Of a DNA stretch of 64,000 nt, positions 3,822-58,062 are shown one piece after another. The DNA is from an uncultured bacterium (GTDB lineage Bacteria > Patescibacteriota > Minisyncoccia > Phycocordibacterales > PALSA-1337), in assembly GCA_963851055.1 (NCBI GenBank), contig CAWKMY010000006.1:142965-206964 (forward strand), written 5' to 3'. Made by a program: the position numbers and the translations under genes. The notes under the pieces are model-generated. The model saw only the letters and a list, made by a program, of their open reading frames with translations. It searched no databases and was not told where the DNA came from. Position 1 is the first letter of the stretch, and every line of letters begins with the position of its first letter.

Positions 3822-4757
3822 TCACCTCTTTCCAGAAAATTTCTGATGAACATTGCAAAAGTGCGCGCTCCTACCGCCTACGACTTTGCGTACGATGATT
3901 CCTTTGCATTGCCCCGGCTTATTGTCACGCTGATCACGAATCATCATCGAACACCTTTCTCCAGTTTTTCTGTATGCCTGATGTTGTTCCTGAAATTTAC
4001 CCCTTTTACCGTCTATATTTCTATAATCAGACATAGAATCGCCACCGAAATCAATGCCTTTTTTAAGAACATTTACGCTTGCCGTATATAACTTTTTCAG
4101 CAAAGCATCAGAATTTTTCTGGGCCAATATATTTTTCACTCGCTCTTCAGGATTTATGCCTGCACGCCACAGAGCTTCGTCGCTGTATATATTTCCAATG
4201 CCGGCTATTATAGATTGGTCCATCAGAACACTCTTTATCCTACCAGTCGGTCGTCGGCCAAGCCTTTCTTTGAAAACGCCGAAAGTGAAGCTTTTGTCCA
4301 ATGGGTCAGGACCTATATTCGCTATATGCAGAGATTGCTCCAAACCTTCCTCGAGATTAGCCTCTCTAATGAGCGTCACCTTGGCAAACTTTCTCATATC
4401 CGAAAGTTCCAAAGTTTTTCCATTATTGAAGGTAAATATGAGATGGATAAAGCGATTGAAAGGATCTTTCCTGTCATAATTTCCGTACATTAGGTGGCCA
4501 GTCATCTTCATGTGGATCAGAATCACGGCTTTTTTATCAAGGTGGATAAGGATATTCTTGGCCATGCGTTCCACGCCGATGACTTTCGCCCCGACCACTT
4601 CCTTCCGGAAATACTTGAAATAAACCGGATCTTTTATAGAATCCTTACCTTTGTGGAAAGCACTGTTATAGTCTGTCCAAACGTCGACGATTCTCAAGTC
4701 ACGAACAGTGCGGTTCAAACCATTGACGGTTGTTTGGACTTCTGGTAATTCAGGCAT
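3822..4757 (-). CDS. mutM: Formamidopyrimidine-DNA glycosylase
   Basis: The N-terminus MPELPEVQ carries the catalytic Pro2/Glu3. An H2TH region and a C-terminal Cys-rich zinc finger are present. Confidence 0.85.
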   Translation of the reverse strand: MPELPEVQTTVNGLNRTVRDLRIVDVWTDYNSAFHKGKDSIKDPVYFKYFRKEVVGAKVIGVERMAKNILIHLDKKAVILIHMKMTGHLMYGNYDRKDPFNRFIHLIFTFNNGKTLELSDMRKFAKVTLIREANLEEGLEQSLHIANIGPDPLDKSFTFGVFKERLGRRPTGRIKSVLMDQSIIAGIGNIYSDEALWRAGINPEERVKNILAQKNSDALLKKLYTASVNVLKKGIDFGGDSMSDYRNIDGKRGKFQEQHQAYRKTGERCSMMIRDQRDNKPGQCKGIIVRKVVGGRSAHFCNVHQKFSGKR

Positions 4758-4784
4758 AGTTCAATATTACTGTATAATGTCCCC

Positions 4785-6077
4785 ATGTGGCAAAGCGAAA
4801 TAGCCAAGATATATCTCACGTTCTTTGCGGTATTATTTTTTCTGGGTGTGCCAACTATTATCTTACATTTTCCTGATCAACTCGCTGTCATAGATAATGT
4901 TTTCAGTAATGCAGTAAGTCAACTAGCCGCAGTTATTATGGTTCACAATCCGAAGTCCTTAGCCGATATAGAATCTCATTATAATGATCAGGGTATGAAC
5001 CCCACCATTTCACCGATAAAAGTTCGTGTTCTCATCGTTCCTGGTCATGAACCAAGTTACGGTGGCGCTGAATATGCGGATCTAAAAGAACGCAATATGA
5101 CAGTAGAGTTGGGGGAAGATCTTTATGATTACCTCGCTAGAGATGGTCACTATCAGACATTCATTACCAGAGATACGACTAGTTGGAGTCCCATTTTTTC
5201 TTCCTACTTTGCTTCAGGAATGAGTGCCATAGCCGCTTGGCGTAGTAATTATGAAAATGAAATGTCTCAAATGATAGCTTTGGGTTCTACTACTTTGGCC
5301 AATCCAAAAGTGATACATAATTCTGTACCAGATAATGTCGCTCTTCGTCTTTACGGCATAACCAAATGGGCAAATGAAAATAATATAGATATAACCATTC
5401 ACATACATTTCAATGATGATCCAACTAGGTCTGGTGATAGTCCTGGAAAATTTTCAGGTCTAGCAGTATATGTGCCCGTGGCTCAATACGAGAATAGCAC
5501 CACCACTCACGCTATCGCTGATGCCGTCTTTAAGAGGTTGTCAAAATATAATGCAGTCAGTAATCTCCCGGCAGAATCCGCCGGTGTGGTAGATGATCCG
5601 GAATTGATAGCGGTCGGAGCAAATAATACTGCTGATAGTGCCAGTATGCTCATCGAATACGCGTATATTTACGAACAACAATTCGCTGATCCGGCTACTC
5701 GTAGCCTGGCCATAAAAGATCTGGCTTATCAGACTTATCTTGGTCTTGAAGATTTCTTCAATTCTAGAGATGCTCGAGCACTGGGGCTTACTTATGACAC
5801 TGTAGCTCTGCCATATAATTGGAAAAATCCGATTTCTGTCGCTGGAACGCAAGGGCCAGACGTTTTCGCTTTACAGACTGCTCTTTCCATAGATGGGGAA
5901 TATCCTCCTATAGATAAGAGTAAAAATGATTGTCCGCGTTCAGGCAAACTCGGACCTTGTACCAAAACGGCTATTTCAGCATTTCAGGAAAAATATGGCA
6001 TTACTGGAGAAGATGGCGCCGTTGGATCGAAAACTCTTCAACTCCTAAATCAACATTACGGAACCAAGACGTTGTAA
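4785..6077 (+). CDS. N-acetylmuramoyl-L-alanine amidase with C-terminal peptidoglycan-binding domain
   Basis: N-terminal TM segment and an Amidase_3-like core. The C-terminal PG_binding_1-like repeat reads GPDVFALQTAL...GAVGSKTLQLL. Confidence 0.7.
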   Translation: MWQSEIAKIYLTFFAVLFFLGVPTIILHFPDQLAVIDNVFSNAVSQLAAVIMVHNPKSLADIESHYNDQGMNPTISPIKVRVLIVPGHEPSYGGAEYADLKERNMTVELGEDLYDYLARDGHYQTFITRDTTSWSPIFSSYFASGMSAIAAWRSNYENEMSQMIALGSTTLANPKVIHNSVPDNVALRLYGITKWANENNIDITIHIHFNDDPTRSGDSPGKFSGLAVYVPVAQYENSTTTHAIADAVFKRLSKYNAVSNLPAESAGVVDDPELIAVGANNTADSASMLIEYAYIYEQQFADPATRSLAIKDLAYQTYLGLEDFFNSRDARALGLTYDTVALPYNWKNPISVAGTQGPDVFALQTALSIDGEYPPIDKSKNDCPRSGKLGPCTKTAISAFQEKYGITGEDGAVGSKTLQLLNQHYGTKTL

Positions 6078-7319
6078 CTCTTCTCTCGCAACTTTCGCGT
6101 CACTCCAAGGAGTCTTTGTTCCATTTGGTCCCATGATATATGGATCAGTGCCTTTGCCTGTGATGATGACAGTGTCACCGGTCTGGGCTTGTTTCAGAGC
6201 CTCACGGATAGCCAAGCGGCGATCCATGATGATGGTCGGTGGATGAGACATGCCCTTGGCTACGTCTTCAACTATATGTTTCGGGTCTTCATCGTACGGA
6301 TCTTCATCTGTCAGTATGACTTCGTCACAGTATTCGTCCGCGAGCCTGCCCATCTCACCGCGTTTCCAAGTATCGCGTCCGCCTCCGGTTCCGCCGAGAA
6401 CGCAGATATTTCTGGAAGAAGGAAAGACTTGGTAGAGCTTCTCCAGAGAATCCGGCGTGTGCGCGTAATCGACTATGACGGTAAAATCCTGGCCTGCCTC
6501 TATCTTCTCCACTCTGCCGCGGATGCCGTCGAACTTTTCAACGGCGCGAACGACCACATCATCAGATACGCCCTGACTCTGCGCCACCGTTATGGCAGCT
6601 AATATGTTATATAGATTGAAAAGCCCGGAAAGCCTTGAATGTACGGTTTGTCCCGCGAATGCAAAAGAAAGGCCTTCGCGATTGATCGAATATGGCTCGA
6701 CTGAATGTATACTGTATGGAATCTTCCTATCGGCCTTACATCCCAAGAATCGCGAACCCTCTTTGTCATCAGCGTTGGCAATCAGGGTACGATTTTTCTT
6801 ATGCGACATGCCCAATCTGCGGGCTATATCAAGTTTTGCGTCGATATACTTTTCATATGAACCGTGAGCCTCTATGTGTTCCGGCGAAATATTGGTGAAT
6901 AGAAATGCGTCCAGGTCTATGAAGTAGTGCCTGTAAGTGATGGCGCCCTGCGAAGTCATCTCTATGATGGCGTAGTCGCATTTCTTGTCCACGGCTTTTC
7001 GCAAAAATCTCTGAGTGAAAAAGCGACCGGGCATGCTCATCTTGTAGAGATTGTCGGATGTCAATTCGTCGACCTTGAACCTGATGGTATTGGAAAGGGC
7101 GGTTTTGTATCCGGCTTCTTCCAGTATGGCATTGAGTATTTCTGTGGTGGAGCTTTTGCCCTTTGTCCCAGTCACGGCTATGACCTTGATCTTGCGCGAA
7201 GGGAAGCGATACCAGACGGCTGACGTGAAAGCCAGTATCCAATGATACGCTGGATTGAGGAATTCAAAGACCGGAGTGGGTATAAATCTACGGGTTTTTA
7301 TGAGGAAAGTGTCCAGCAT
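6045..7319 (-). CDS. murE: Mur ligase family protein (MurE-like)
   Basis: P-loop VTGTKGKSST and DYAHTPDSLE motif. Its 3' end overlaps the convergent amidase 3' end by 33 nt. Confidence 0.7.
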   Translation of the reverse strand: MLDTFLIKTRRFIPTPVFEFLNPAYHWILAFTSAVWYRFPSRKIKVIAVTGTKGKSSTTEILNAILEEAGYKTALSNTIRFKVDELTSDNLYKMSMPGRFFTQRFLRKAVDKKCDYAIIEMTSQGAITYRHYFIDLDAFLFTNISPEHIEAHGSYEKYIDAKLDIARRLGMSHKKNRTLIANADDKEGSRFLGCKADRKIPYSIHSVEPYSINREGLSFAFAGQTVHSRLSGLFNLYNILAAITVAQSQGVSDDVVVRAVEKFDGIRGRVEKIEAGQDFTVIVDYAHTPDSLEKLYQVFPSSRNICVLGGTGGGRDTWKRGEMGRLADEYCDEVILTDEDPYDEDPKHIVEDVAKGMSHPPTIIMDRRLAIREALKQAQTGDTVIITGKGTDPYIMGPNGTKTPWSDAKVAREELQRLGSVMLI

Positions 7320-8887: not shown

Positions 8888-8962
8888 CGCCCTCGTCGTT
8901 CAACGGATAGGACGCAGGATTGCGGATCCTGCAATAGAGGTTCGATTCCTCTCGGGGGCACC
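8888..8962 (+). tRNA. tRNA-Arg (anticodon GCG), CCA encoded
   Basis: Acceptor GCCCTCG/CGGGGGC, anticodon stem CAGGA/TCCTG with loop TTGCGGA, T-loop GGTTCGATTCC, 3' CCA. Confidence 0.85.
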
Positions 8963-8966
8963 AATA

Positions 8967-12902: not shown

Positions 12903-13202
12903 ATGAAAAAATTCTCACATTTACGATATATGATAGGCAACGACCCCTTCGTCGATTGGGCCTTGATCTTCGCGTCATCGGTCTTCGTAGCTATCGTAGC
13001 CGTCATTGTCGGAGTATATGTCTATGCAGGCGGCGCCGCGTCTCTCGCGTCCACTCCGCCCATCGCGGAGAGCGAAAACCAAGCCGCGCATTTTGACGCG
13101 GCGGAGCTCACTACCATAACGGCGGCATTTGACGCCCGTGCGGCAGAGAGAGTACTCTTGACCAGAGGCTATTCAGGGCCGTCCGATCCATCCCTCCCGT
13201 AG
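12903..13202 (+). CDS. Hypothetical single-TM protein in pilus block
   Basis: A 99-aa ORF with one TM. Its last 10 nt overlap tRNA-Arg(TCT). Confidence 0.35.
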   Translation: MKKFSHLRYMIGNDPFVDWALIFASSVFVAIVAVIVGVYVYAGGAASLASTPPIAESENQAAHFDAAELTTITAAFDARAAERVLLTRGYSGPSDPSLP

Positions 13203-13264
13203 TTCAATGGATAGAACAGGAGACTTCTAAGCTCTTGATGAGGGTTCGATTCCCCCCGGGAGGA
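13193..13264 (+). tRNA. tRNA-Arg (anticodon TCT), with stem irregularities
   Basis: Perfect acceptor CCTCCCG/CGGGAGG and anticodon loop CTTCTAA. One A-G mismatch closes the anticodon stem and the T stem has one A-C mismatch. Confidence 0.6.
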
Positions 13265-13373
13265 CAAAAAGCTAGTTTACAAGCTGTGAATTACTTGACT
13301 TGCGTGAGCTATTATCGTGGTACAATTATGGAGGTCATCTATTTATCAATTAGTAACAGTTAATTTACGTAAT

Positions 13374-22516: not shown

Positions 22517-22588
22517 GCTCCCGTAGTTTAATGGATAGAACACGAGCCTCCGAAGTTCGTGGTCCAGGTTCGATTCCTGGTGGGAGCA
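22517..22588 (+). tRNA. tRNA-Arg (anticodon CCG)
   Basis: Acceptor GCTCCCG/TGGGAGC, anticodon loop CTCCGAA, T-loop GGTTCGATTCC. Confidence 0.85.
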
Positions 22589-22614
22589 CAAATTCGCGAA
22601 AAAGTCGTTGTTCT

Positions 22615-29308: not shown

Positions 29309-29962
29309 ATGAATACAAAACGCATCATATTTTGGGTGATTTTCGTCGTCGTTCTCGGTCTTATCGTCTGGGGTTTGGGTGTTGCAATGAATAAACCGGC
29401 GGCAAGCTCGAATTTAGCCGCTCCAGCACCCGTTACCTCGGCTGATCACATCATCGGTGCGGCCAGTGCCCCCGTCACCATGATCGAATACGGTGATTTT
29501 GAATGTCCAGCCTGCGGCGTATATGCCCCGATAGTCGAGAGGCTCGTCGCTACTGACGCTTCCACCACTCTTCGCCTAGTCTTCCGTCATTTTCCTCTGC
29601 CACAGCACGCAAACGCTCCTCTAGCCGCCCAAGCTTCCGAAGCCGCGGCCATGCAGGGAAAGTTCTGGGATATGTACCGCCTGCTTTACGCCAATCAAGC
29701 GGATTGGGTAAACCTTTCCGATCCGCATTCTATTTTTGACGGGTATGCAGAGCAGGTCGGTCTCGACATGACCAAGTTCAAGGCTGACATAGACAGCACC
29801 GCCGCCAAAGCTGCTGTTGTAGCCGACCAAACGGAAGGTGAGCATATAGGCATAGACCAGACTCCGACCTTCTTTGTTAACGGCAAAGCCGTAATAAATC
29901 CCCAAAGCTATGAAGCATTTCAAGCACTTATTGAAGCGGCCGCTTCAGGAAGTTCCAATTAA
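29309..29962 (+). CDS. DsbA-family thiol:disulfide oxidoreductase
   Basis: N-terminal TM and the thioredoxin CxxC motif (FECPAC) in a DsbA-like context. Confidence 0.8.
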   Translation: MNTKRIIFWVIFVVVLGLIVWGLGVAMNKPAASSNLAAPAPVTSADHIIGAASAPVTMIEYGDFECPACGVYAPIVERLVATDASTTLRLVFRHFPLPQHANAPLAAQASEAAAMQGKFWDMYRLLYANQADWVNLSDPHSIFDGYAEQVGLDMTKFKADIDSTAAKAAVVADQTEGEHIGIDQTPTFFVNGKAVINPQSYEAFQALIEAAASGSSN

Positions 29963-30404: not shown

Positions 30405-31445
30405 ATGAAACATTCAGATATCCTTATAACTAAGCCTTGCGCCGACTATGAACTTATCGATTCCGGTGAAGGTGAGAAATTAGAACGCTTTGGCAAAGTG
30501 ATTCTCGCTAGGCCGGATCCGCAGGCTTTGTGGCCAAAGCGCCTTTCCGCCGCCGAATGGAAAAAAGCCGACGGGACTTTCGGCAGAGTAAGCAGTTCCA
30601 AAAAAGGAGAAGGTGAGAAAGGAGAAAGGGGTGATTGGTCGCTGGATAAAAAAGCCCAGGAGCCCTGGGTCATTGATTTTGCCAATCTGAAGCTGCGTAT
30701 AAAGCCGACGGCTTTCAAGCATGTCGGGCTTTTTCCGGAGCAGGCGATGAATTGGGAGTGGTTAAGGAATTTGATTAATCGCGAAGCGACACTGCAGGGT
30801 GAAGGGACCTTGCGAGCGCGTCGGCGCGAGCACGAGGAATTTTCCAGCAGGAAAATATCCGTGTCCCTGAATCCTGTGGTGACGCGGAGCGATGATATTG
30901 AAGTCCTCAACCTTTTCGGCTATACCGGCGGCGCCACTCTAGCTTGCGCTCAAGCCGGTGCCAAAGTCGTGCACATAGATGGGTCAAAGACCGCCGTGAC
31001 TTGGGCTAGGGAAAATGCTGAATTGTCTGGTCTCAAAGATAAGCCTATACGCTGGATTGTCGAAGATGCAAGAGCCTTTGTTGAACGAGAGTTGAAGCGT
31101 GGCAAGTCTTATGACGGTATTATCATGGATCCACCAGCATTCGGTCATGGTCCGGAAAATGAATTGTGGAAGATAGAGGAACATTTTCTGAAACTTATAG
31201 AGGATTGTAAAAAGCTTTTGAAGCCAAAACCACTTTTCTTTCTCATCAACGGATATTCAGCGGGATATTCAGCGGTAGCTTATGAAAATAATCTCCTACC
31301 TTTAAAGGAAAAGTTTGGCGGAAATATTGAAACAGGGGAATTGGCTATAGAAGAGAGTAGAAAGAAGCAAGGAGAAGGAATTAAGGAGGAAAACGCGGCG
31401 CGCCTTCTGCCATGCGGCATTTTTGCCAGGTGGGCGTTAAAATAG
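30405..31445 (+). CDS. Class I SAM-dependent (RlmI/RlmK-like) methyltransferase
   Basis: SAM-binding block VLNLFGYTGGATLACAQAGAKVVHIDGS and DGIIMDPPAFG. Confidence 0.7.
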   Translation: MKHSDILITKPCADYELIDSGEGEKLERFGKVILARPDPQALWPKRLSAAEWKKADGTFGRVSSSKKGEGEKGERGDWSLDKKAQEPWVIDFANLKLRIKPTAFKHVGLFPEQAMNWEWLRNLINREATLQGEGTLRARRREHEEFSSRKISVSLNPVVTRSDDIEVLNLFGYTGGATLACAQAGAKVVHIDGSKTAVTWARENAELSGLKDKPIRWIVEDARAFVERELKRGKSYDGIIMDPPAFGHGPENELWKIEEHFLKLIEDCKKLLKPKPLFFLINGYSAGYSAVAYENNLLPLKEKFGGNIETGELAIEESRKKQGEGIKEENAARLLPCGIFARWALK

Positions 31446-31476
31446 GCCTGTAAATAGGGCTTTTGCAGATAATCTA

Positions 31477-31506
31477 TTGACAAATAGGTATATTTGGGTG
31501 TATAAT
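31477..31506 (+). promoter_or_regulatory. Near-consensus sigma70-type promoter upstream of the DGR target gene
   Basis: TTGACA, an 18-nt spacer, then TATAAT, read directly from the sequence. Confidence 0.6.
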
Positions 31507-31742
31507 ATCGTCAAGACTTCTAATTGCACCTGAACTCGATCTCAGCTTCGCTGTTGCGGAGATGTGAGAAAGAGACGGCACCATGATGAAGTGAACATGA
31601 ACTATGAAAATTCAAACTCCTCCGCCAGTTATCCTGGCAGGTCCTGATTCCATCTTTTCCGTGGCCGCCAGTTTTGCGTCCCGGATGAACTCGCTCAAGC
31701 TTTCGCAAGAGCGGGTCGAATGAGATCAAGGATGGCGATCCT

Positions 31743-32351
31743 GTGTTCTGGTCGAAGTTTGATTTGGCACTTATGCCGGATCAGACTGAAACCGCGCGCG
31801 AATACGGCGCTATCCTCCATGACTGGTCGAAATTCTACAAGAAGTATTTCGGCATCGTCGCCGACTTCTCGACCATCCGTATCCCCGCCAAGGTTGTCGG
31901 TTTCGACAGGCTCATCATCGTCGCCGAAGGCCTCTCCATCAATCAGGTCTATGAAACCGGAAAGAAAAATTTCGGTTCGTGGAAATGGTGCAGTGGCGAC
32001 ATCGAGTCGAATATGCGCGTCGAAGAGCGTGGCTCGGTCAAGGTGTCCTATGCTATCTGGGTTCGTAATGGTCAAGAAGCCGATGAAGACCTCAAAAACC
32101 TCTCGGCCGAAATGGTTGACCGACCGCAAGACACCGAGAACTTGCTCGAACGTCTTATCCATGGATTCAAGTTCTGGAGCGAGACCAAAGAGCATCTCGA
32201 TATCGAGACCGTCACACTCTGCGCGTCCTCGCGCTATGCCGACGGCGGTGTTCCGGGCGTGCTTCGCAGCGACGTTGGCGGTGTGGGCGTGGACAGGTAT
32301 GGCCGGCGGCTTGCCATTTCGTGCTTGCGTGCTCGCCGGGCAGTCCGGTAA
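31743..32351 (+). CDS. DGR target (variable) protein, uncharacterised family
   Basis: A protein-like 202-codon ORF starting at GTG. The true start may be elsewhere. The variable C-terminus reads ...TLCASSRYADGGVPGVLRSDVGGVGVDRYGRRLAISCLRARRAVR. Confidence 0.65.
   Translation: MFWSKFDLALMPDQTETAREYGAILHDWSKFYKKYFGIVADFSTIRIPAKVVGFDRLIIVAEGLSINQVYETGKKNFGSWKWCSGDIESNMRVEERGSVKVSYAIWVRNGQEADEDLKNLSAEMVDRPQDTENLLERLIHGFKFWSETKEHLDIETVTLCASSRYADGGVPGVLRSDVGGVGVDRYGRRLAISCLRARRAVR
32220..32348 (+). other. Candidate DGR variable region (VR)
   Basis: Hand count: 9 A in 128 nt (32221-32348) versus 33 A in the preceding 120 nt. All three forward frames are open. 18 of the last 43 codons are NNC. Confidence 0.65.
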
Positions 32352-32381
32352 CCTTAATCTTGTTCCTCCTCATTCACTTAC

Positions 32382-32409
32382 CCCCGAGCAAACGAAAGTT
32401 TGCTCGGGG
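32382..32409 (+). promoter_or_regulatory. Perfect 12-bp hairpin with GAAA tetraloop downstream of VR (DGR target-recognition-type hairpin/cruciform)
   Basis: CCCCGAGCAAAC-GAAA-GTTTGCTCGGGG, starting 30 nt after the target stop codon. Confidence 0.75.
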
Positions 32410-32536
32410 TGTATCTTTTATGCCATTATTATCGTGGTTGTTAAATTGGTCTACCTCGCCATTCGCCAGCTGGTGAAGGCGGAGCAGATAACAATTTGCC
32501 ATATAAAGAAACTGCCTGTCTCTTTTTATACTATGC

Positions 32537-33406
32537 TTGGCCAATGGAACATGGAAACCGGATCCGTATACCATTTCAATCATTCAAGATCCAAAGAAAC
32601 GCACTATTCATGCCGCCAGTGTCCGCGATCGAGTCTTATATCAAGCAGTATATCGGTCATTATATCCTATTTTCGATACCTCATTCATCCATGATGTCTA
32701 TTCTTCTCGCGATTTCAAGGGGACTCATACTGGGGTGAATCGGCTTGAAGTATTTGCTCGAAAGGCTTCACGCAATTATACCAGACCGGCTTTCGCTCTC
32801 AAATGCGACATCAGAAAATTCTTTGATTCGGTGGATCATAATATTTTGTTCGAGTTAATTTCAAAGAAGATTTTTGATAAAAAGCTGCTCGATTTTATTC
32901 TCGCCATCATAGATTCATTTCATCATAGACCCGGCAAAGGCTTACCTCTCGGAAATGTCACCAGCCAATTATTTGCGAATATCTATATGGATGAATTCGA
33001 TCAATTCACCAAACATCGGCTCAAGGCGAAATACTATATTCGTTATTGCGATGATTTCGTCATTCTGGATGATTCACGAGAGACTCTCGAGAGGATTATT
33101 CAACCGATAAGTGAATTCTTGTATGAAAAATTGGTTTTGGAGATCCATCCGCGAAAATTGGAGATCCGTAAACTCCGGCAGGGAGTTGATTTTCTGGGTT
33201 ATGTATCATTGCCTCATTACAAAGTCTTAAGAACGAGTACCAAGAAGAGGATGTTGAGAAAAATAGAGGAGGCTAAGGCATTATTTCAAACAGACACTAT
33301 TTCCAAAAACAAACTCCGTAGCATAGTCGCTTCTTATTTAGGTATGTTGAGCCACTGTGAAAGTTGGGGTGTCAGAAACAAAATTCATGCTATGCTTTCC
33401 GGTATC
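32537..33406 (+). CDS. DGR-clade reverse transcriptase, N-terminally short, no own stop codon
   Basis: RT motifs are present: RTIHAASVRDRV, SRDFKGTH, DIRKFFDSVDH, GLPLGNVTSQLFANIYMDEFD, IRYCDDFVIL, GVDFLGY, SYLGMLSH. The ORF starts at TTG 32537 and runs in frame into folD. Confidence 0.8.
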
Positions 33407-34354
33407 ATGTATGCCAAACTCCTCGACGGCCGTATCGCCAGGACCGAACTGAAAAAGAAGCTTGCTGACAGGGTTTCTGCATTCAAGGCAGAGCAGGGCT
33501 TTTCTCCTACTCTCGCTATTATCCAAGTTGGAGACAGACCTGATACGGCTTCATATATAAAAGCAAAGAAGTCATTTGGATCCGAGATCGGAGTTGAAGT
33601 AAGACACATACATTTGAATGAGAATGTTTCTAAAGAAGAGATTATTTCAGAGATTGATGAATTGAATGGCGATAAGACTATTGGCGGTATAATTCTTCAG
33701 TTACCCTTGCCTGAAGCGCTGAATATCAACAGAAAAGAAATTATTGACTCTATCGATCCTCTCAAAGATACCGACGGTTTGACTTCTTCGAATGTAAATG
33801 GATGGAATTTGGCGACTGAAAATCCGATGTTTGATTCAGTTGGTAAAACCGGTATAATTTGGCCAGCCACTGCCAGAGGAGTGCTTGAACTACTATATTT
33901 TTATAAGATTTTCGTGAAAGACAAAAGAGTTTGTATTGTCGGTCGTTCTGAATTAGTTGGTACACCTATAGCAGCTATGTGCCGAAATCAAGGCGCCATC
34001 GTAATAGTTTGTCATTCTAAGACCATCGATTTGGTGAAAGAAACTCGTGCTTCAGACGTCATCATAACTGCCGTGGGAAGGCCGAACCTTATAACAGCTG
34101 GACATGTGCATTCAGGCCAAGCGGTTATCGATGTCGGTATCAACGAAGTCGCAGCCGATAAATCAAATGCCGCTGGTGTCGAGAAGCTGGAAGAAGAGAT
34201 TCCCAAAAGGAAATTGGTTGGCGATGTCGATTTTGAGGCCGTCAAATCAGTGATCGGCAATTCAGGTGCCATCACTCCAGTTCCGGGAGGCGTCGGACCC
34301 ATGACAGTTCTGGCTCTTTTCGAGAATTTGATGGATTTGTGTGGTAAAATATAA
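33407..34354 (+). CDS. folD: Bifunctional methylenetetrahydrofolate dehydrogenase/cyclohydrolase FolD
   Basis: A complete FolD pattern begins at the internal ATG (MYAKLLDGRIA..., LAIIQVGDRPDTASYIKAKKK, GIILQLPLP, DGL, VVGRSELVGTP, PVPGGVGPMT). Confidence 0.85.
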   Translation: MYAKLLDGRIARTELKKKLADRVSAFKAEQGFSPTLAIIQVGDRPDTASYIKAKKSFGSEIGVEVRHIHLNENVSKEEIISEIDELNGDKTIGGIILQLPLPEALNINRKEIIDSIDPLKDTDGLTSSNVNGWNLATENPMFDSVGKTGIIWPATARGVLELLYFYKIFVKDKRVCIVGRSELVGTPIAAMCRNQGAIVIVCHSKTIDLVKETRASDVIITAVGRPNLITAGHVHSGQAVIDVGINEVAADKSNAAGVEKLEEEIPKRKLVGDVDFEAVKSVIGNSGAITPVPGGVGPMTVLALFENLMDLCGKI

Positions 34355-34393
34355 GCACTAACAATCAGCATATTCGTAAATTCGTATTATATC

Positions 34394-35281
34394 ATGCCTA
34401 TACAACAAAAAGTCTGGAAAATCGGTGCTTTCGTCGGAATAGTGTTAGGCCTATACCTGGTTGCTCTTACATTGGGACAGTTAAAGTCGATCTCATACAT
34501 AGGCTCCGGCATCCAGCCGACCAATACCATCTCCGTCGACGGAACAGGCGATGCTTATGCCATTCCTGACATAGCCACATTCTCATTCACAGTGACCGAA
34601 ACAGCCAAGACGGTGACTGCGGCGCAGACAGCGGCTACTACCAAAGCGAACGCCGCCCTTGCCGCAGTCAAAGCCGCCGGCGTAGCCGACAAGGACATCC
34701 AGACTACTTCGTATAATATCAATCCGGATTATGAGTATCAGAATGCGGTTTGTCCGATGGGTACCTACAATAGCGTTGCTCCAGTGTCCGCGCCGGATGT
34801 TTCCAATGGCTCTTCCGGTGGTTCATCTGGCGTAGTTTCTTCGAATGCAATAATCGCCACTCCTATATATTGTCCTTCGGGCAAATCTGTCTTGACCGGC
34901 TATGATGTGTCGGAAACCATTACCGTGAAGGTACGCAACCTCGATAATGCCGGCACGATATTCGCTTCCATAGGCTCTCTGGGCGTAGAGAATGTTAATG
35001 GTCTTGATTTCTCTGTGGATAATCCTGGTGCCGTCCAAGCTCAAGCTCGTGCCACAGCCATTGCTGACGCGCAATCAAAGGCCAAACTTCTAGCCAAACA
35101 ACTCGGCGTAAATCTTGTACGCATAGTCAGTTTTACCGAGGATAACGGCACTGTACCGCAACCCTTGGTGTATGCCATGAATGCTTCGACAGGCGCAGTC
35201 CCGAAAGCCGCGACTCCAACCATAGCCACCGGTCAAGAGAAAGTCACCGACAATGTGACGATAACTTACGAGATAGAGTAG
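34394..35281 (+). CDS. SIMPL/DUF541-domain periplasmic protein
   Basis: N-terminal TM, then a SIMPL pattern (ISVDGTGDAYAIPDIATFSFTV... TSYNINPDYEY ... IATGQEKVTDNVTITYEI). Confidence 0.75.
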   Translation: MPIQQKVWKIGAFVGIVLGLYLVALTLGQLKSISYIGSGIQPTNTISVDGTGDAYAIPDIATFSFTVTETAKTVTAAQTAATTKANAALAAVKAAGVADKDIQTTSYNINPDYEYQNAVCPMGTYNSVAPVSAPDVSNGSSGGSSGVVSSNAIIATPIYCPSGKSVLTGYDVSETITVKVRNLDNAGTIFASIGSLGVENVNGLDFSVDNPGAVQAQARATAIADAQSKAKLLAKQLGVNLVRIVSFTEDNGTVPQPLVYAMNASTGAVPKAATPTIATGQEKVTDNVTITYEIE

Positions 35282-45631: not shown

Positions 45632-48600
45632 ATGGAAGAGAATAAGCCTCTCAAGAGCCCACATGCTATACGCGAAGAGCGCATTTTGGCTTTCTGGAAG
45701 GAGAAGGATATCTTCAATAAAAGCCTCAATAAAGCCTCGACAAAGGGAGAATTTGTCTTTTACGAAGGCCCGCCTACGGCCAATGGTCGTCCAGGCATAC
45801 ATCACATCGAGCCTCGCGCTTTCAAGGATGCTATCCCGCGCTATCGGACGATGCGTGGCTATCATGTTCGCCGCAAAGGAGGCTGGGACACTCACGGTCT
45901 GCCAGTCGAACTTCAAGTTGAAAAACAACTTGGTCTAAAATCGAAAAAGGAAATAGATACTTATGGCATAGAGAAATTCAATGAGAAATGCAAAGAGAGC
46001 GTCTGGACATATGTCCATGAGTGGGAGGATTTTACTAACCGCATGGGATATTGGGTGGATCTTAAAGATCCCTATATCACTTATAAGCCCGATTATATGG
46101 AATCGGTTTGGAATGTTATCAAGACCGCTGACGAGAAAGGTTTGCTCTACAAGGATTACAAAGTAGTGCCGTGGTGTCCGCGATGTGGTACGGGCCTTTC
46201 TTCACATGAATTGGCGCAGGGATATGAGGATGTGAAGGATCTTTCCGTTTACGTGAAGTTCAAGGTGAAGTCTGGCCAAAAAATCGGTGATTTTGTCACG
46301 GATGACAAGACTTTTTTTCTGGCGTGGACAACTACTCCGTGGACTTTGCCTGGGAATGTCGGGTTGGCGGTGGGTAAACAAATCGATTACTGCACAGTAA
46401 GGCCAGCAGATGGTGGCGACACCTTGATACTTGCAAAGCAACGTTTGCAATACATGCCAATCGATAAACCGCAGGGCGTACATGATACTTTTAAAGGCTC
46501 CGACTTGGTCGGCCTCTTATACGAACCTCTCTATCCATTTGAAAAAGATAATATTACTGGTGCCGAAAAAGAAAAGCTCACCAATGCTTTCAAAGTCTAT
46601 GTCGCTGATTTCGTCACGACCGCCGATGGAACGGGTATCGTCCACATCGCACCTATGTACGGTCAGGATGACTTCGAGCTTGGCACCAAAGTTGGTTTGC
46701 CGAAATATCACCTAGTCAATGACGATGGCACTTTCAAGAAAGAGACAGACTTCCTGGCTGGCAAATTTGTGAAAGATGAAGCCACTGATGTTGAGATCAT
46801 CAAAGACCTCGCGCATCGCGGTTTGCTTTTCCATAAGGAGAAATACGCCCACAGCTATCCTCATTGCTGGCGATGCCACACACCACTCATTTATTTCGCT
46901 CGCGATTCCTGGTATATACGCATGTCGGAGTTGAGACATAAGCTGGTCAAAGAGAATGAAGGCATCAATTGGGAACCTGCTCATATAAAAGAAGGCCGTT
47001 TCGGCGAATGGCTCCGAGAAGCCAAGGATTGGGCCATTTCCCGCGAGCGATATTGGGGTACGCCTCTGCCGGTGTGGATATGCGAGAAGTGTGGGGAGAA
47101 GAAAGTGGTTGGATCGGTAGCGGATGTCTCAAAGAAGCCGAGAAATACTTATTATGTCATGCGGCATGGGGAGGCCGAAAGCAATATCAGCGATGTATGG
47201 AGTGGTAACCCAAAGTCGTCTAATCATCTAACTGAAAAGGGTAGGAAACAGGTCAGCGAATCCGCGAAGTCATTTAAGGGCTCTAAGCCTGATCTTATAT
47301 TCACGTCTCCTTTTATCCGCACAAAGGAAACTGCGGGGATTGTGAAGTCATCCCCTGGATTTGAAGGCGCGAAGATAGTCGAATATTCTAGTTTAGGGGA
47401 AATGGGTGTTGGGAGATACGACGGAATGAAAGGATCAGAATTCACCAAAATTTTTCCTCTGCAGAATCGCTTTGGGAAAGCTCCCGAAGGAGTAGAAAAC
47501 TATTTCGACATAAAGAAAAGATTGGCTAGCTTACTCGATGAATTGGAATCTACTTATTCGGATAAGACGATATTTCTTGTTACTCATGGCGCTCCAGCCA
47601 TGCTTCTTGAGGCGATTTGTAAAAAATTTGAACAAGAGCAATTTCTAAAATATGAAGAGAGTTCATACATAAACAATGCAGAAATTCGTAAACTCGACCT
47701 TTGCATAATTCCTCACAATCATTTATACGAACTCGACTTGCATCGTCCATTCATAGATGAGGTCAGATTGCCGTGCGCCTGTGGGGGTGAGATGAAGCGC
47801 GTAAAGGAGGTTATGGACGTCTGGTTCGACTCTGGCGCTATGCCGTTCGCGGAGGATCATTATCCTTTTGAGAATAAAAAGCTGATTGACAACAGTCTGT
47901 TCAGAAAAGCTAAGGGTTATCCGGCTGATTTTATTTCCGAAGCTATCGATCAGACTCGCGGCTGGTTCTACACATTGCACGCCATTGGCACCATCATGGG
48001 CAAAGGTAAGGCCTTTAAGAATGTTATTTGTCTAGGGCATATTCTGGACAGCCAAGGAAAGAAGATGTCCAAGTCTATCGGCAATGTTGTCGATCCGTGG
48101 ATCATGATGGATAAATATGGCGCCGACGCTCTGCGTTTCTGGATGTATTCGGTCAATCAGCCCGGAGATTCAAAGAATTTCGATGAGAAGACCGTTGATG
48201 AGATTATCAAAAAAGTTTTCAATCTGGCGGCCAATGTGGCGTCGTTCTACCGGATGTACGCGGGAGAAAGAGCTAGGATTTGGGAGTTGGAAGTTGGAAG
48301 AGAATCGCAAAATATTCTAGACCGTTGGATCATCGCCAGGCTGAATCAGTTGGTCGCTAATGTCACCGTAAATCTCGACGATTTCGTTCTGCTCGAGCCG
48401 ACTCGCGCTATACGCGACTTTATTGCCGATCTTTCGCAATGGTATCTTCGACGTTCGCGCGACAGGTTCAAAGAAGATGATAGTGGCGCATTGAAATCTG
48501 CGGACCTGCCTGCCGGCAGGCACGGTAAACAGGCAGCATTGGCTACGACAAAATATGTATTGCTCACTTTGGCCAAAGTTATGGCACCATTTACGCCGTT

Positions 48601-56595: not shown

Positions 56596-58062
56596 ATGTC
56601 TAAAAAGCCTTTTTATATAACGACAACCTTGCCGTATGTGAATGCCGAGCCTCACATAGGCCATGCCATGGAATTCATACGCGCCGATGCTATAGCTAGG
56701 GCAAAAAGTCTCGCCGGTAATGACGTTTTTTTCAATACCGGAACGGATGAGCATGGCATAAAAGTCTATCAGAAAGCAAAGCAGCTCGGTTTAGAGCCGC
56801 AAGGATATGTAGATCAAGCATCGGGCAAGTTCAAGGATATTTTGACAGCGCTCGGCATCGCCACGAATGAACCAGATATAAAGTTCAATTTCATACGCAC
56901 AACAGACCCAGACCACGTTAAGGCGGCTCAGGCTTTTTGGAAATTAGTGGACAAGAACGGCTATATCTATAAGAAGAATTATTCCATAAAGTATTGCATC
57001 GGCTGCGAGCTGGAGAAGACTGATTCCGAGCTGGTCGACGGTAAGTGTCCGCTACATCCGCTCATGGCTATAGAGATCATTAATGAGGAGAATTATTTCT
57101 TTAAGTTCAGCGCTTTCCAAAAACCTTTGCTAGAGCTATATGAGAAAAATCCAGCCTTAGTCATCCCGGATTTCCGTTTCAATGAGATAAAAGCATTCGT
57201 TGGGCGCGGTTTGGAAGATTTCAGCATATCGCGTTTGGCTAGCAAGATGCCATGGGGCATACCGGTGCCAGGGGACGAGGGCCAGGTCATGTATGTATGG
57301 TTCGACGCCTTGGTCAATTACATTTCAGCCGTTGGTTGGCCAGATGATACCGCCTCGTACCAAAAGTGGTGCGGCATCGGCGCGGGTAAAAGCGGCGGCA
57401 TGGTCCAATATTGCGGCAAAGACAATCTCCGCCAGCAGTCAGCCATGTGGCAGGCCATGCTCATGGCCGCAGGGCTTCCGCCTTCAAAGACCATAGTCAT
57501 CGACGGCTTCATCACAGGCGAAGGTGGCATCAAGATGTCCAAGTCTCTCGGCAACACCGTTGATCCGTTAGACATAGTCAAACAATACGGCACTGATGCT
57601 TTGCGTTATTATGTAGCTCGAGAGATTTCGCCTTTCGAAGATTCGCCTTTCACCATGGAGCGATTCAAGGAATCTTATAATGCCAGTCTGGCCAATGGGG
57701 TAGGGAATTTAACTAGTAGAATAATGAAAATGTCGGAGGCGAATATCGATGCGGTTTCTGTAGAAACCGACGCGTACCCAAGTGAATATACGAAAGCAAT
57801 AGAGTCATATGACTTGAAGACGGCTATGGATATTATTTGGTCAAGGATCTCAGGGCTTGATGGAATCATTCAAAAAGAACAGCCGTTCAAACTGATAAAG
57901 GAAGACAAGAAAAAAGGCCAAGAAGTCATAACAAAGATGGTTAAAGAGCTTTTCCAGATAGCAAAACTCCTGGAACCATTCCTGCCATCCACTTCTTTGA
58001 AGATCCAAGAATGTGTGAAGACAAATAAGATGCCATCGGAACCGCTCTTTATGAGGAAATAA
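56596..58062 (+). CDS. metG: Methionine--tRNA ligase
   Basis: HIGH-type motif (YVNAEPHIGHA), KMSKS, and a zinc knuckle CIGCE...CPLH. Confidence 0.95.
   Translation: MSKKPFYITTTLPYVNAEPHIGHAMEFIRADAIARAKSLAGNDVFFNTGTDEHGIKVYQKAKQLGLEPQGYVDQASGKFKDILTALGIATNEPDIKFNFIRTTDPDHVKAAQAFWKLVDKNGYIYKKNYSIKYCIGCELEKTDSELVDGKCPLHPLMAIEIINEENYFFKFSAFQKPLLELYEKNPALVIPDFRFNEIKAFVGRGLEDFSISRLASKMPWGIPVPGDEGQVMYVWFDALVNYISAVGWPDDTASYQKWCGIGAGKSGGMVQYCGKDNLRQQSAMWQAMLMAAGLPPSKTIVIDGFITGEGGIKMSKSLGNTVDPLDIVKQYGTDALRYYVAREISPFEDSPFTMERFKESYNASLANGVGNLTSRIMKMSEANIDAVSVETDAYPSEYTKAIESYDLKTAMDIIWSRISGLDGIIQKEQPFKLIKEDKKKGQEVITKMVKELFQIAKLLEPFLPSTSLKIQECVKTNKMPSEPLFMRK

Follow-up and report, generated by a model that had tools for sequence, protein, structure and literature searches.

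In Bordetella phage BPP-1, whose diversity-generating retroelement (DGR) is the prototype, the components are co-directional and follow the order avd, template repeat (TR), brt. The variable repeat (VR) of a DGR target usually lies in a C-terminal ligand-binding fold, usually a C-type lectin. The reverse transcriptase (RT) of the Bordetella phage, bRT, bears an N-terminal extension that contacts Avd extensively and the template:primer duplex as well, and a conserved Lys on an Avd-braced loop contacts a template phosphate (bioRxiv 10.1101/2023.10.23.563531); in the same work the analysis of the RNA requirements of the DGR reached only 40 nt upstream of the TR. The hairpin described downstream of the VR has a GC-rich stem of 7-10 bp and a GRNA loop, and lies 4-34 bp after the VR (Guo et al., PMC3240598). 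The cellular DGRs of the Patescibacteria, or CPR, constitute DGR clade 2 (Roux et al. 2021, PMC8144416). Neither a leader RNA of CPR DGRs nor truncated DGR RTs are described in the literature that we searched.

Here we studied an RT locus in a 64 kb stretch of DNA (hereafter the window), which is very probably the remnant of a chromosomal Patescibacteria DGR truncated by a deletion. The locus shares with the CPR DGRs L006, L005, L002 and L003 an RT that is 57-71% identical to RTs found beside perfect TR/VR pairs, as well as the same target family with a C-terminal VR, a post-VR hairpin and a leader, and its flanking genes match those of L006, L005 and the P0002 contig. Unlike these DGRs, it lacks the TR, avd, RT residues 1-58 and the RT stop codon, and its target gene is frameshifted. 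With the BPP-1 DGR it has in common the RT motifs LGxxxSQ (motif 4) and YxDD and a GC-rich post-VR hairpin capped by a GAAA loop (PMC3240598), and the GKR-containing N-terminal extension of its intact relatives is the equivalent of the Avd-binding extension of bRT. It differs from BPP-1 in that the avd of CPR DGRs is antisense, between the TR and the RT gene, and overlaps the 5′ end of the latter, in that a structured leader lies ~70-130 nt upstream of the TR of CPR DGRs, and in that the N-terminal extension, Avd and the TR have been deleted from the window.

Results

The RT open reading frame and its missing N-terminus

The RT lies in an open reading frame (ORF) of 605 aa (32537..34354) that starts at TTG 32537, reads ANGTWKPDPYTISIIQDPKKRTIHAASVRDRV... 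and contains RVT_1 at residues 20-222 (Pfam, E 9.7e-23). Both catalytic motifs reported intact in the original prediction, LGNVTSQ and YCDD, are present, and they agree with the motif 4 ([LIV]GxxxSQ) and YxDD signature of DGR-clade RTs. The RT part of the ORF is the following:

32537..33391, + strand: RT without its N-terminal extension, equivalent to residues 59-327 of the L006 RT; catalytic motifs intact, no stop codon of its own

This remnant is 72% identical to residues 62-348 of the homolog P0001, and our conservation test found 1 of 84 near-invariant positions altered, which equals the homolog median.

Three stop codons precede the ORF in the same frame (TGA 32474, TAA 32489 and TAA 32504) and TTG 32537 is the first start codon after them, just as predicted; read through, the frame gives ...MPLLSWLLNWSTSPFASW*RRSR*QFAI*RNCLSLFILCLANGTWKPDPY... 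We estimated from the base composition (~43% G+C) that 39-61 non-coding codons would hold 2-3.5 stops by chance, so that three are about what chance gives. Reassignment of stop codons, by which the frame might have been read through, was rejected because it would have to cover TGA as well as TAA and because this stretch is a non-coding leader. An ATG at 32420 is also in the RT frame, with 39 codons between it and 32537, and the next ATG within the ORF comes at about residue 151. TTG 32537 corresponds to a conserved Leu five codons ahead of a Trp, from which the homolog P0005 is also called; its standing as the only 5′ start was created by the deletion junction described below. An argument against this start based on the absence of a Shine-Dalgarno sequence was dropped, since seven confident genes of the window also lack one. 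These genes start at 29309, 29910, 30405, 34394, 35401, 35583 and 36157, and in several of them (MTase, SIMPL, SecE) a TATA-like box lies just 2-6 nt before the ATG; such starts may belong to leaderless mRNAs in this genome.

To place the first residue of the window RT, we compared it with its homologs. A search of a protein collection returned Patescibacteria RTs by the thousand, with identities of up to 71% and lengths of mostly 340-360 aa, which share the N-terminus ..GGGxHSCDFxDVISxxNLFxAWxEFxxGKRSxxDVAxFELxLExNLFxLHxxLxxGTWKPDPY. The number of residues ahead of the first one of the window RT is 58 in the RT of the syntenic locus L006, which has an ATG start, and 59 in the median of 67 full-length homologs. 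The RT is therefore N-terminally short, as had been proposed, but by 58 residues relative to L006 rather than by 40-50, and the window holds no complete RT with the Avd-binding extension. Some homologs are called short (288-296 aa), among them P0004 (L001) and P0005 (L086). In both of these the frame stays open ahead of the called start and encodes the conserved N-terminus, without a canonical start codon; the two short calls are gene-call artefacts, and RTs of this clade do not begin at the equivalent of ANGTWKP, the outcome named beforehand as speaking against a truncation. The RT call P0002, on the syntenic contig ERZ1426829, begins at the same Leu as the window RT, and by analogy with P0005 this short start may likewise be an artefact. 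In many RTs of the clade the conserved N-terminus has no ATG, GTG or TTG nearby (L001 4160-4344 and L086 330-509, for example). Gene callers therefore place the start of such RTs 50-60 codons late, as in P0004 and P0005 and probably in P0002, P0014 and P0023.

The original prediction also held that the frame upstream of TTG 32537 faintly retains the N-terminal pattern. We built a profile HMM from 67 full-length RT N-termini and scored the upstream RT frame against it, with the stops masked in the window query. The frame scored 1.1 bits, and -1.8 bits once the 8 RT codons of the overlap were left out, which is noise: for shuffled sequence (best of six frames) the median score was -0.9 bits and the 95th percentile lay at 2.0 bits, while the N-termini of L001 and L086, used as positive controls, scored 114 and 116 bits. 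The profile found no match in a six-frame translation of the whole 64 kb. The pattern is thus not there, and the DNA in question is homologous to a non-coding leader.

The putative deletion junction

Pairwise and four-way DNA alignments with L001, L002, L003 and L006 placed a single clean gap over the TR, avd and RT codons 1-58, and located the following junction in the window:

32536..32537, + strand: putative deletion junction, ...TATACTATGC / TTGGCCAATGGAACATGG... (RT codon 59)

When aligned with L001, the window matches the end of the target gene, including the VR, at 32180-32350, and at 32480-32536 a block whose L001 counterpart follows the VR at ~100-150 nt and precedes the template repeat by ~85 nt; after a gap of ~800 nt the alignment resumes at GGAACATGGAAACC, encoding GTWKP. 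The distance between the anchors AGAAAYTGC and TGGAAACC is 45 nt in the window vs 770-852 nt in L006, L005, L015, L002 and L003, which means that 725-807 nt are missing from the window. A single deletion of ~0.73-0.81 kb would have brought RT codon 59 right up against the end of the leader, and the same deletion would have taken the template repeat, the antisense avd and the N-terminal extension of the RT. Judging by these alignments, the RT N-terminus appears to have been deleted rather than decayed by point mutation. The proposal of a degraded 5′ end was thus right in that the 5′ truncation is a true one and wrong in placing a decayed N-terminus at the site.

We infer that the deletion was a single event, real rather than an assembly error, and recent, and that the leader left in place now serves to transcribe the RT remnant and folD. 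Our searches revealed no genome of a close relative, the best FolD match being 72% identical and the best RT match 71%. That the remaining 285 RT codons are undecayed suggests a recent deletion, and continued selection fits this as well.

A conserved leader upstream of the junction

By homology, the sequence just upstream of the junction, at 32394-32536, is a conserved non-coding leader that related Patescibacteria DGRs carry between the VR and the TR. The leader was located as follows:

Window, 32394-32544: conserved leader
L006, 5159-5283: conserved leader
L002, 5087-5216: conserved leader
L015, 5103-5249: conserved leader
20 further loci: conserved leader

With blastn, window positions 32487-32536 had matches in 13 intact loci, located 720-860 nt ahead of the corresponding RT position; in L018 33 of 33 bases are identical though the RT is only 51% identical. 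The leader block was found in 23 loci with nhmmer and in 24 with a covariance model, always as one copy, on the + strand and 750-900 nt upstream of the RT anchor, and also in L099. The DNA of the leader is better conserved than the RT gene. Its elements in the window are the following:

32424..32431, + strand: TATAAT-like box CATTATTA, conserved among relatives (TATAAT or TACAAT) and followed after 5-10 nt by the leader hairpin (alignments)
32436..32500, + strand: DGR leader hairpin, GGY-UGUU-AAAUUGGU...variable apical stem...GAUAACAAUUUGCC (covariation)
32507..32536, + strand: single-stranded leader motif AGAAACTGCCTG...TTTATACTATGC (blastn and nhmmer matches in 13-23 DGR loci)

The minimum-free-energy fold of the window copy gave the same hairpin, extended to 32434-32502. 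Across 17 loci 96.5% of the cells are paired and compensatory changes occur in 12 of the 17 pairs (RNAalifold and pair counts); none of 500 shuffles was as good, and slid controls were 29-52% paired. The G-U pairs indicate a structure of the + strand, which is thus probably formed in RNA. As RNA, the conserved stretch after the hairpin reads AGAAACUGCNUG...UUUAUACUAUGC. A second -10-like box, TATACT, lies within the 32507..32536 motif. The sequences of the two TATA-like boxes suggest a promoter role; a sigma-70 scan called no + strand promoter in the leader.

The in-frame stops fall within these elements: the hairpin holds TGA 32474 in its apical stem and TAA 32489 in a conserved GAUAAC bulge, and TAA 32504 falls in the linker, just before the 32507..32536 motif. 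Given these positions, the three stops are ordinary features of the leader.

We searched window positions 31000-34500 against Rfam 15 at E <= 1 and obtained no match to the leader hairpin, to a retron or to any other relevant family; the sole match was a chance SNORD50 elsewhere, with an E of 0.18. The hairpin is a modest by-product of this analysis, and a structured leader upstream of the TR is not covered by the work on the RNA requirements of DGRs.

Target gene, VR and the loss of TR and avd

Upstream of the leader lie the two parts of a target gene, the VR and a further hairpin:

31604..31720, + strand: N-terminal fragment of the DGR target gene (MKIQTPPPVILAGPDSIFSVAASFASRMNSLKLSQERV...), from three-frame translation against the L083 and L006 targets
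31743..32351, + strand: rest of the DGR target gene, a 202-aa ORF from GTG with 60% identity to the L006 target and synteny with L006, L083 and L099
32232..32345, + strand: variable repeat (VR), from comparison with orthologous TRs
32382..32409, + strand: GC-rich hairpin of 12 bp with a GAAA loop, then a T-run (terminator scan)

The target gene is not intact: relative to L083, a +1 frameshift near 31717 (GGGTC-G-AATGAG) splits it, and congruently a tblastn search with the L006 target matched the window in two frames, at 31628-31720 and 31725-32300. No Pfam domain was found in the 31743..32351 ORF. The target gene with its VR (31600-32350) has a G+C content of 52-59% vs 37-43% in the RT remnant (32540-33400).

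Compared with the TRs of L006, L003, L002 and L083, the VR of the window differs at 69-75% of the TR-adenine positions and at 21-29% of the others; in the intact controls L006 and L002 the VR differs from its TR at 59-72% of the adenine positions and at 0% of the other positions. The adenine bias of these differences means that the element was once active in this lineage, and from its sequence the VR seems to be frozen in a diversified state.

The hairpin at 32382..32409 follows the VR by ~31-37 nt. It is GC-rich and has a GRNA tetraloop, and so fits the post-VR hairpin of DGR targets; with its T-run it also looks like an intrinsic terminator. Analogous post-VR hairpins are present in L002, L003, L006 and L099.

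Repeat search, blastn and an adenine-tolerant scan of the 64 kb revealed the VR as a sole copy, with no TR/VR pair, and the TRs of relatives matched nothing there but the VR. Neither avd nor a second RT was found in the 64 kb, and tblastn with five Avd proteins of relatives gave noise. A TR could lie elsewhere in the genome, beyond the 64 kb. The 58 deleted RT residues include the GKR motif, which belongs to the equivalent of the N-terminal extension of bRT. With no template, no Avd, the RT subdomain for Avd binding and template:primer positioning lost, the target frameshifted and the RT stop lost, the element is unable to diversify its target. It is a dead DGR remnant of a known kind, and its decay is ordinary.

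The locus in relatives

In relatives the conserved order is DsbA, VKOR, SAM-methyltransferase (MTase), the DGR (target/VR, leader, TR, antisense avd, RT), folD and SIMPL. The fully syntenic and intact reference is L006, which is organized as follows:

4384-5118: target gene, with the VR at 4992-5111
5159-5283: leader
5354-5473: TR, with 0% non-adenine and 59% adenine mismatches to the VR
5493-5834, - strand: avd, 113 aa (PF22296, E 2.8e-8, 34.6 bits, full model length)
5827-6810: RT, 327 aa, ATG start, followed by folD from 6810 and then SIMPL

The 34.6 bits of the L006 Avd lie below the curated PF22296 cut-off of 40. An avd in antisense between the TR and the RT gene, with overlapping avd and RT 5′ ends, is seen in L006, L002, L003, L005 and L015; in the overlap a G-run encodes GGGG in the RT and PPP in Avd.

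At the MTase-folD locus the DGR is intact in L006 and L005, and probably in the P0002 contig. Other relatives have lost it to different extents. L099 retains the target, the leader hairpin and, ahead of folD, ~30 codons from the 3′ end of the RT gene, and represents an independent deletion. L083 has a VR/TR-recombinant target, and of its RT the 116 C-terminal residues remain, in frame with folD; 13 RT codons are left in L085, and in L082 and L101 there is nothing between MTase and folD. Such varied stages of decay mean that real deletions are common at this locus. The target of L083 ends at 4568-4801 in a hybrid of VR (5′) and TR (3′) followed by the TR 3′ flank, and its "VR" consequently reads like an unmutated TR (...VNRNNDGDVNINRYDPSNRNPNLRARREVS). 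This arrangement indicates a homologous recombination between VR and TR that would have removed the hairpin and the leader.

The RT-folD junction

Immediately downstream of the RT remnant lies the next gene:

33392..34354, + strand: folD (methylene-THF dehydrogenase/cyclohydrolase; Pfam THF_DHG_CYH and THF_DHG_CYH_C)

The likely start of folD is ATG 33392 (MLSGIM...) or ATG 33407 (MYAKLLDG); FolD calls of relatives begin with MLSGIM, and the window is colinear with the start of the L006 FolD. As the RT stop has been lost, the RT reads ...AMLSGIM... in frame into a complete FolD (33380-33412). The RT stop of L006 shares one base with the folD ATG, an arrangement in which a change of 1 nt could fuse RT and folD. 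In-frame RT-folD arrangements were also found in the nearer relatives P0123/L100 and P0130/L083, where the peptide is AMLSGIM, and independently in the more distant P0201.

Discussion

The reading according to which the 40-50 N-terminal codons are still present at 32402-32536, decayed by point mutations that include three nonsense mutations, deserves practically no credence, and in-situ decay of this kind is refuted. It could appeal to the faint likeness, by eye, of LLSW..RRSR..F...N.L to NLF.AW..GKRS..F.L..NLF and to the ATG at 32420 in the RT frame. However, the upstream frame scores at noise level against the N-terminal profile, and the upstream DNA is 80-100% identical to the non-coding leader of other loci, which lies upstream of the TR. 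Moreover, from ATG 32420 to 32537 there is room for only 39 codons when 58 are needed, and the undecayed state of the rest of the RT is hard to square with a heavy decay limited to 117 nt. It is also improbable that the genome is intact and that an assembly artefact misjoined the leader to RT codon 59, the frameshift at 31717 being a sequencing error. DGR loci are heterogeneous in populations and often badly assembled, which counts for an artefact, and we found no second assembly with the same junction: a search of JGI metagenomes for the exact junction gave 0 matches, and a degenerate leader-to-WKP pattern gave 11, all due to chance and with no RT or FolD nearby. Against an artefact, the junction lies outside the VR/TR repeat, where a collapse would be expected, and a true VR/TR recombinant looks like L083; L099, L083 and L085, which come from other samples, bear different, independent deletions at this locus, so that real deletions are common here; and the 31717 frameshift is not in a long homopolymer.

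A further reading, that the truncated RT has been kept for a function, either as an RT-FolD fusion or as a domesticated RT independent of TR and Avd, seems to us most improbable, though somewhat less so than decay in place. It would fit the intact remnant ORF, with 1 of 84 conserved positions altered, the RT remnants in frame with folD here and in L083/P0130, L100/P0123 and P0201, and the junction peptide AMLSGIM kept among relatives. It is opposed by the absence of the N-terminal extension, Avd and the TR, by a 5′ start limited to the junction-made TTG 32537, the next ATG being at about residue 151, and by the alignment of the L006 FolD from the Met of MLSGIM, which gives folD its own start. 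In addition, the RT is wholly lost in L082 and L101 and reduced to 13-30 codons with stops upstream in L085 and L099, with folD intact. Since relatives dispense with the RT and yet keep folD, a retained function of the RT or of the fusion is unlikely. A bolder and rather improbable possibility is that the leader (-10-like box, hairpin and AGAAACUGCNUG...UAUACU) acts in CPR DGRs as a functional RNA and promoter module not described before, which selection would keep after the death of the DGR to drive the folD operon; in its strongest version the in-frame RT remnant would be translated as a part of FolD. The deletions of the window and of L099, which are independent, both spare the leader and fuse it to the remaining RT-folD.

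On the preferred reading, that of a CPR DGR truncated by deletion, the locus is comparable with 5′-truncated retroelement copies, which also present an RT ORF without its 5′ end or partner RNA and with intact catalytic motifs. It differs from them in that the truncation is a genomic deletion in a non-mobile cassette and not the result of incomplete reverse transcription. A retron, suggested by the name "retron-type reverse transcriptase" that JGI gives to several homologs, was rejected: the Rfam 15 search of 31000-34500 gave no msr/msd RNA, and the homologs have TR/VR pairs.

For annotation, the RT at 32537 is best labelled a pseudogene fragment left by a dead DGR; the 605-aa "RT-FolD" ORF is not to be mistaken for a new fusion enzyme, and the VR of the target is best read as a frozen variant. 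Together with its relatives, the locus provides a natural series of the loss of cellular DGRs in streamlined CPR genomes, which includes VR/TR recombination, internal deletions and complete excision.

Finally, two sets of repeats unrelated to the DGR were observed in the window. One consists of tRNA-gene-like repeats at 8890-8964, 13194-13268 and 22518-22592; the other is a KMSKS-type block common to two aminoacyl-tRNA-synthetase-like genes, at 48062-48137 and 57532-57607.
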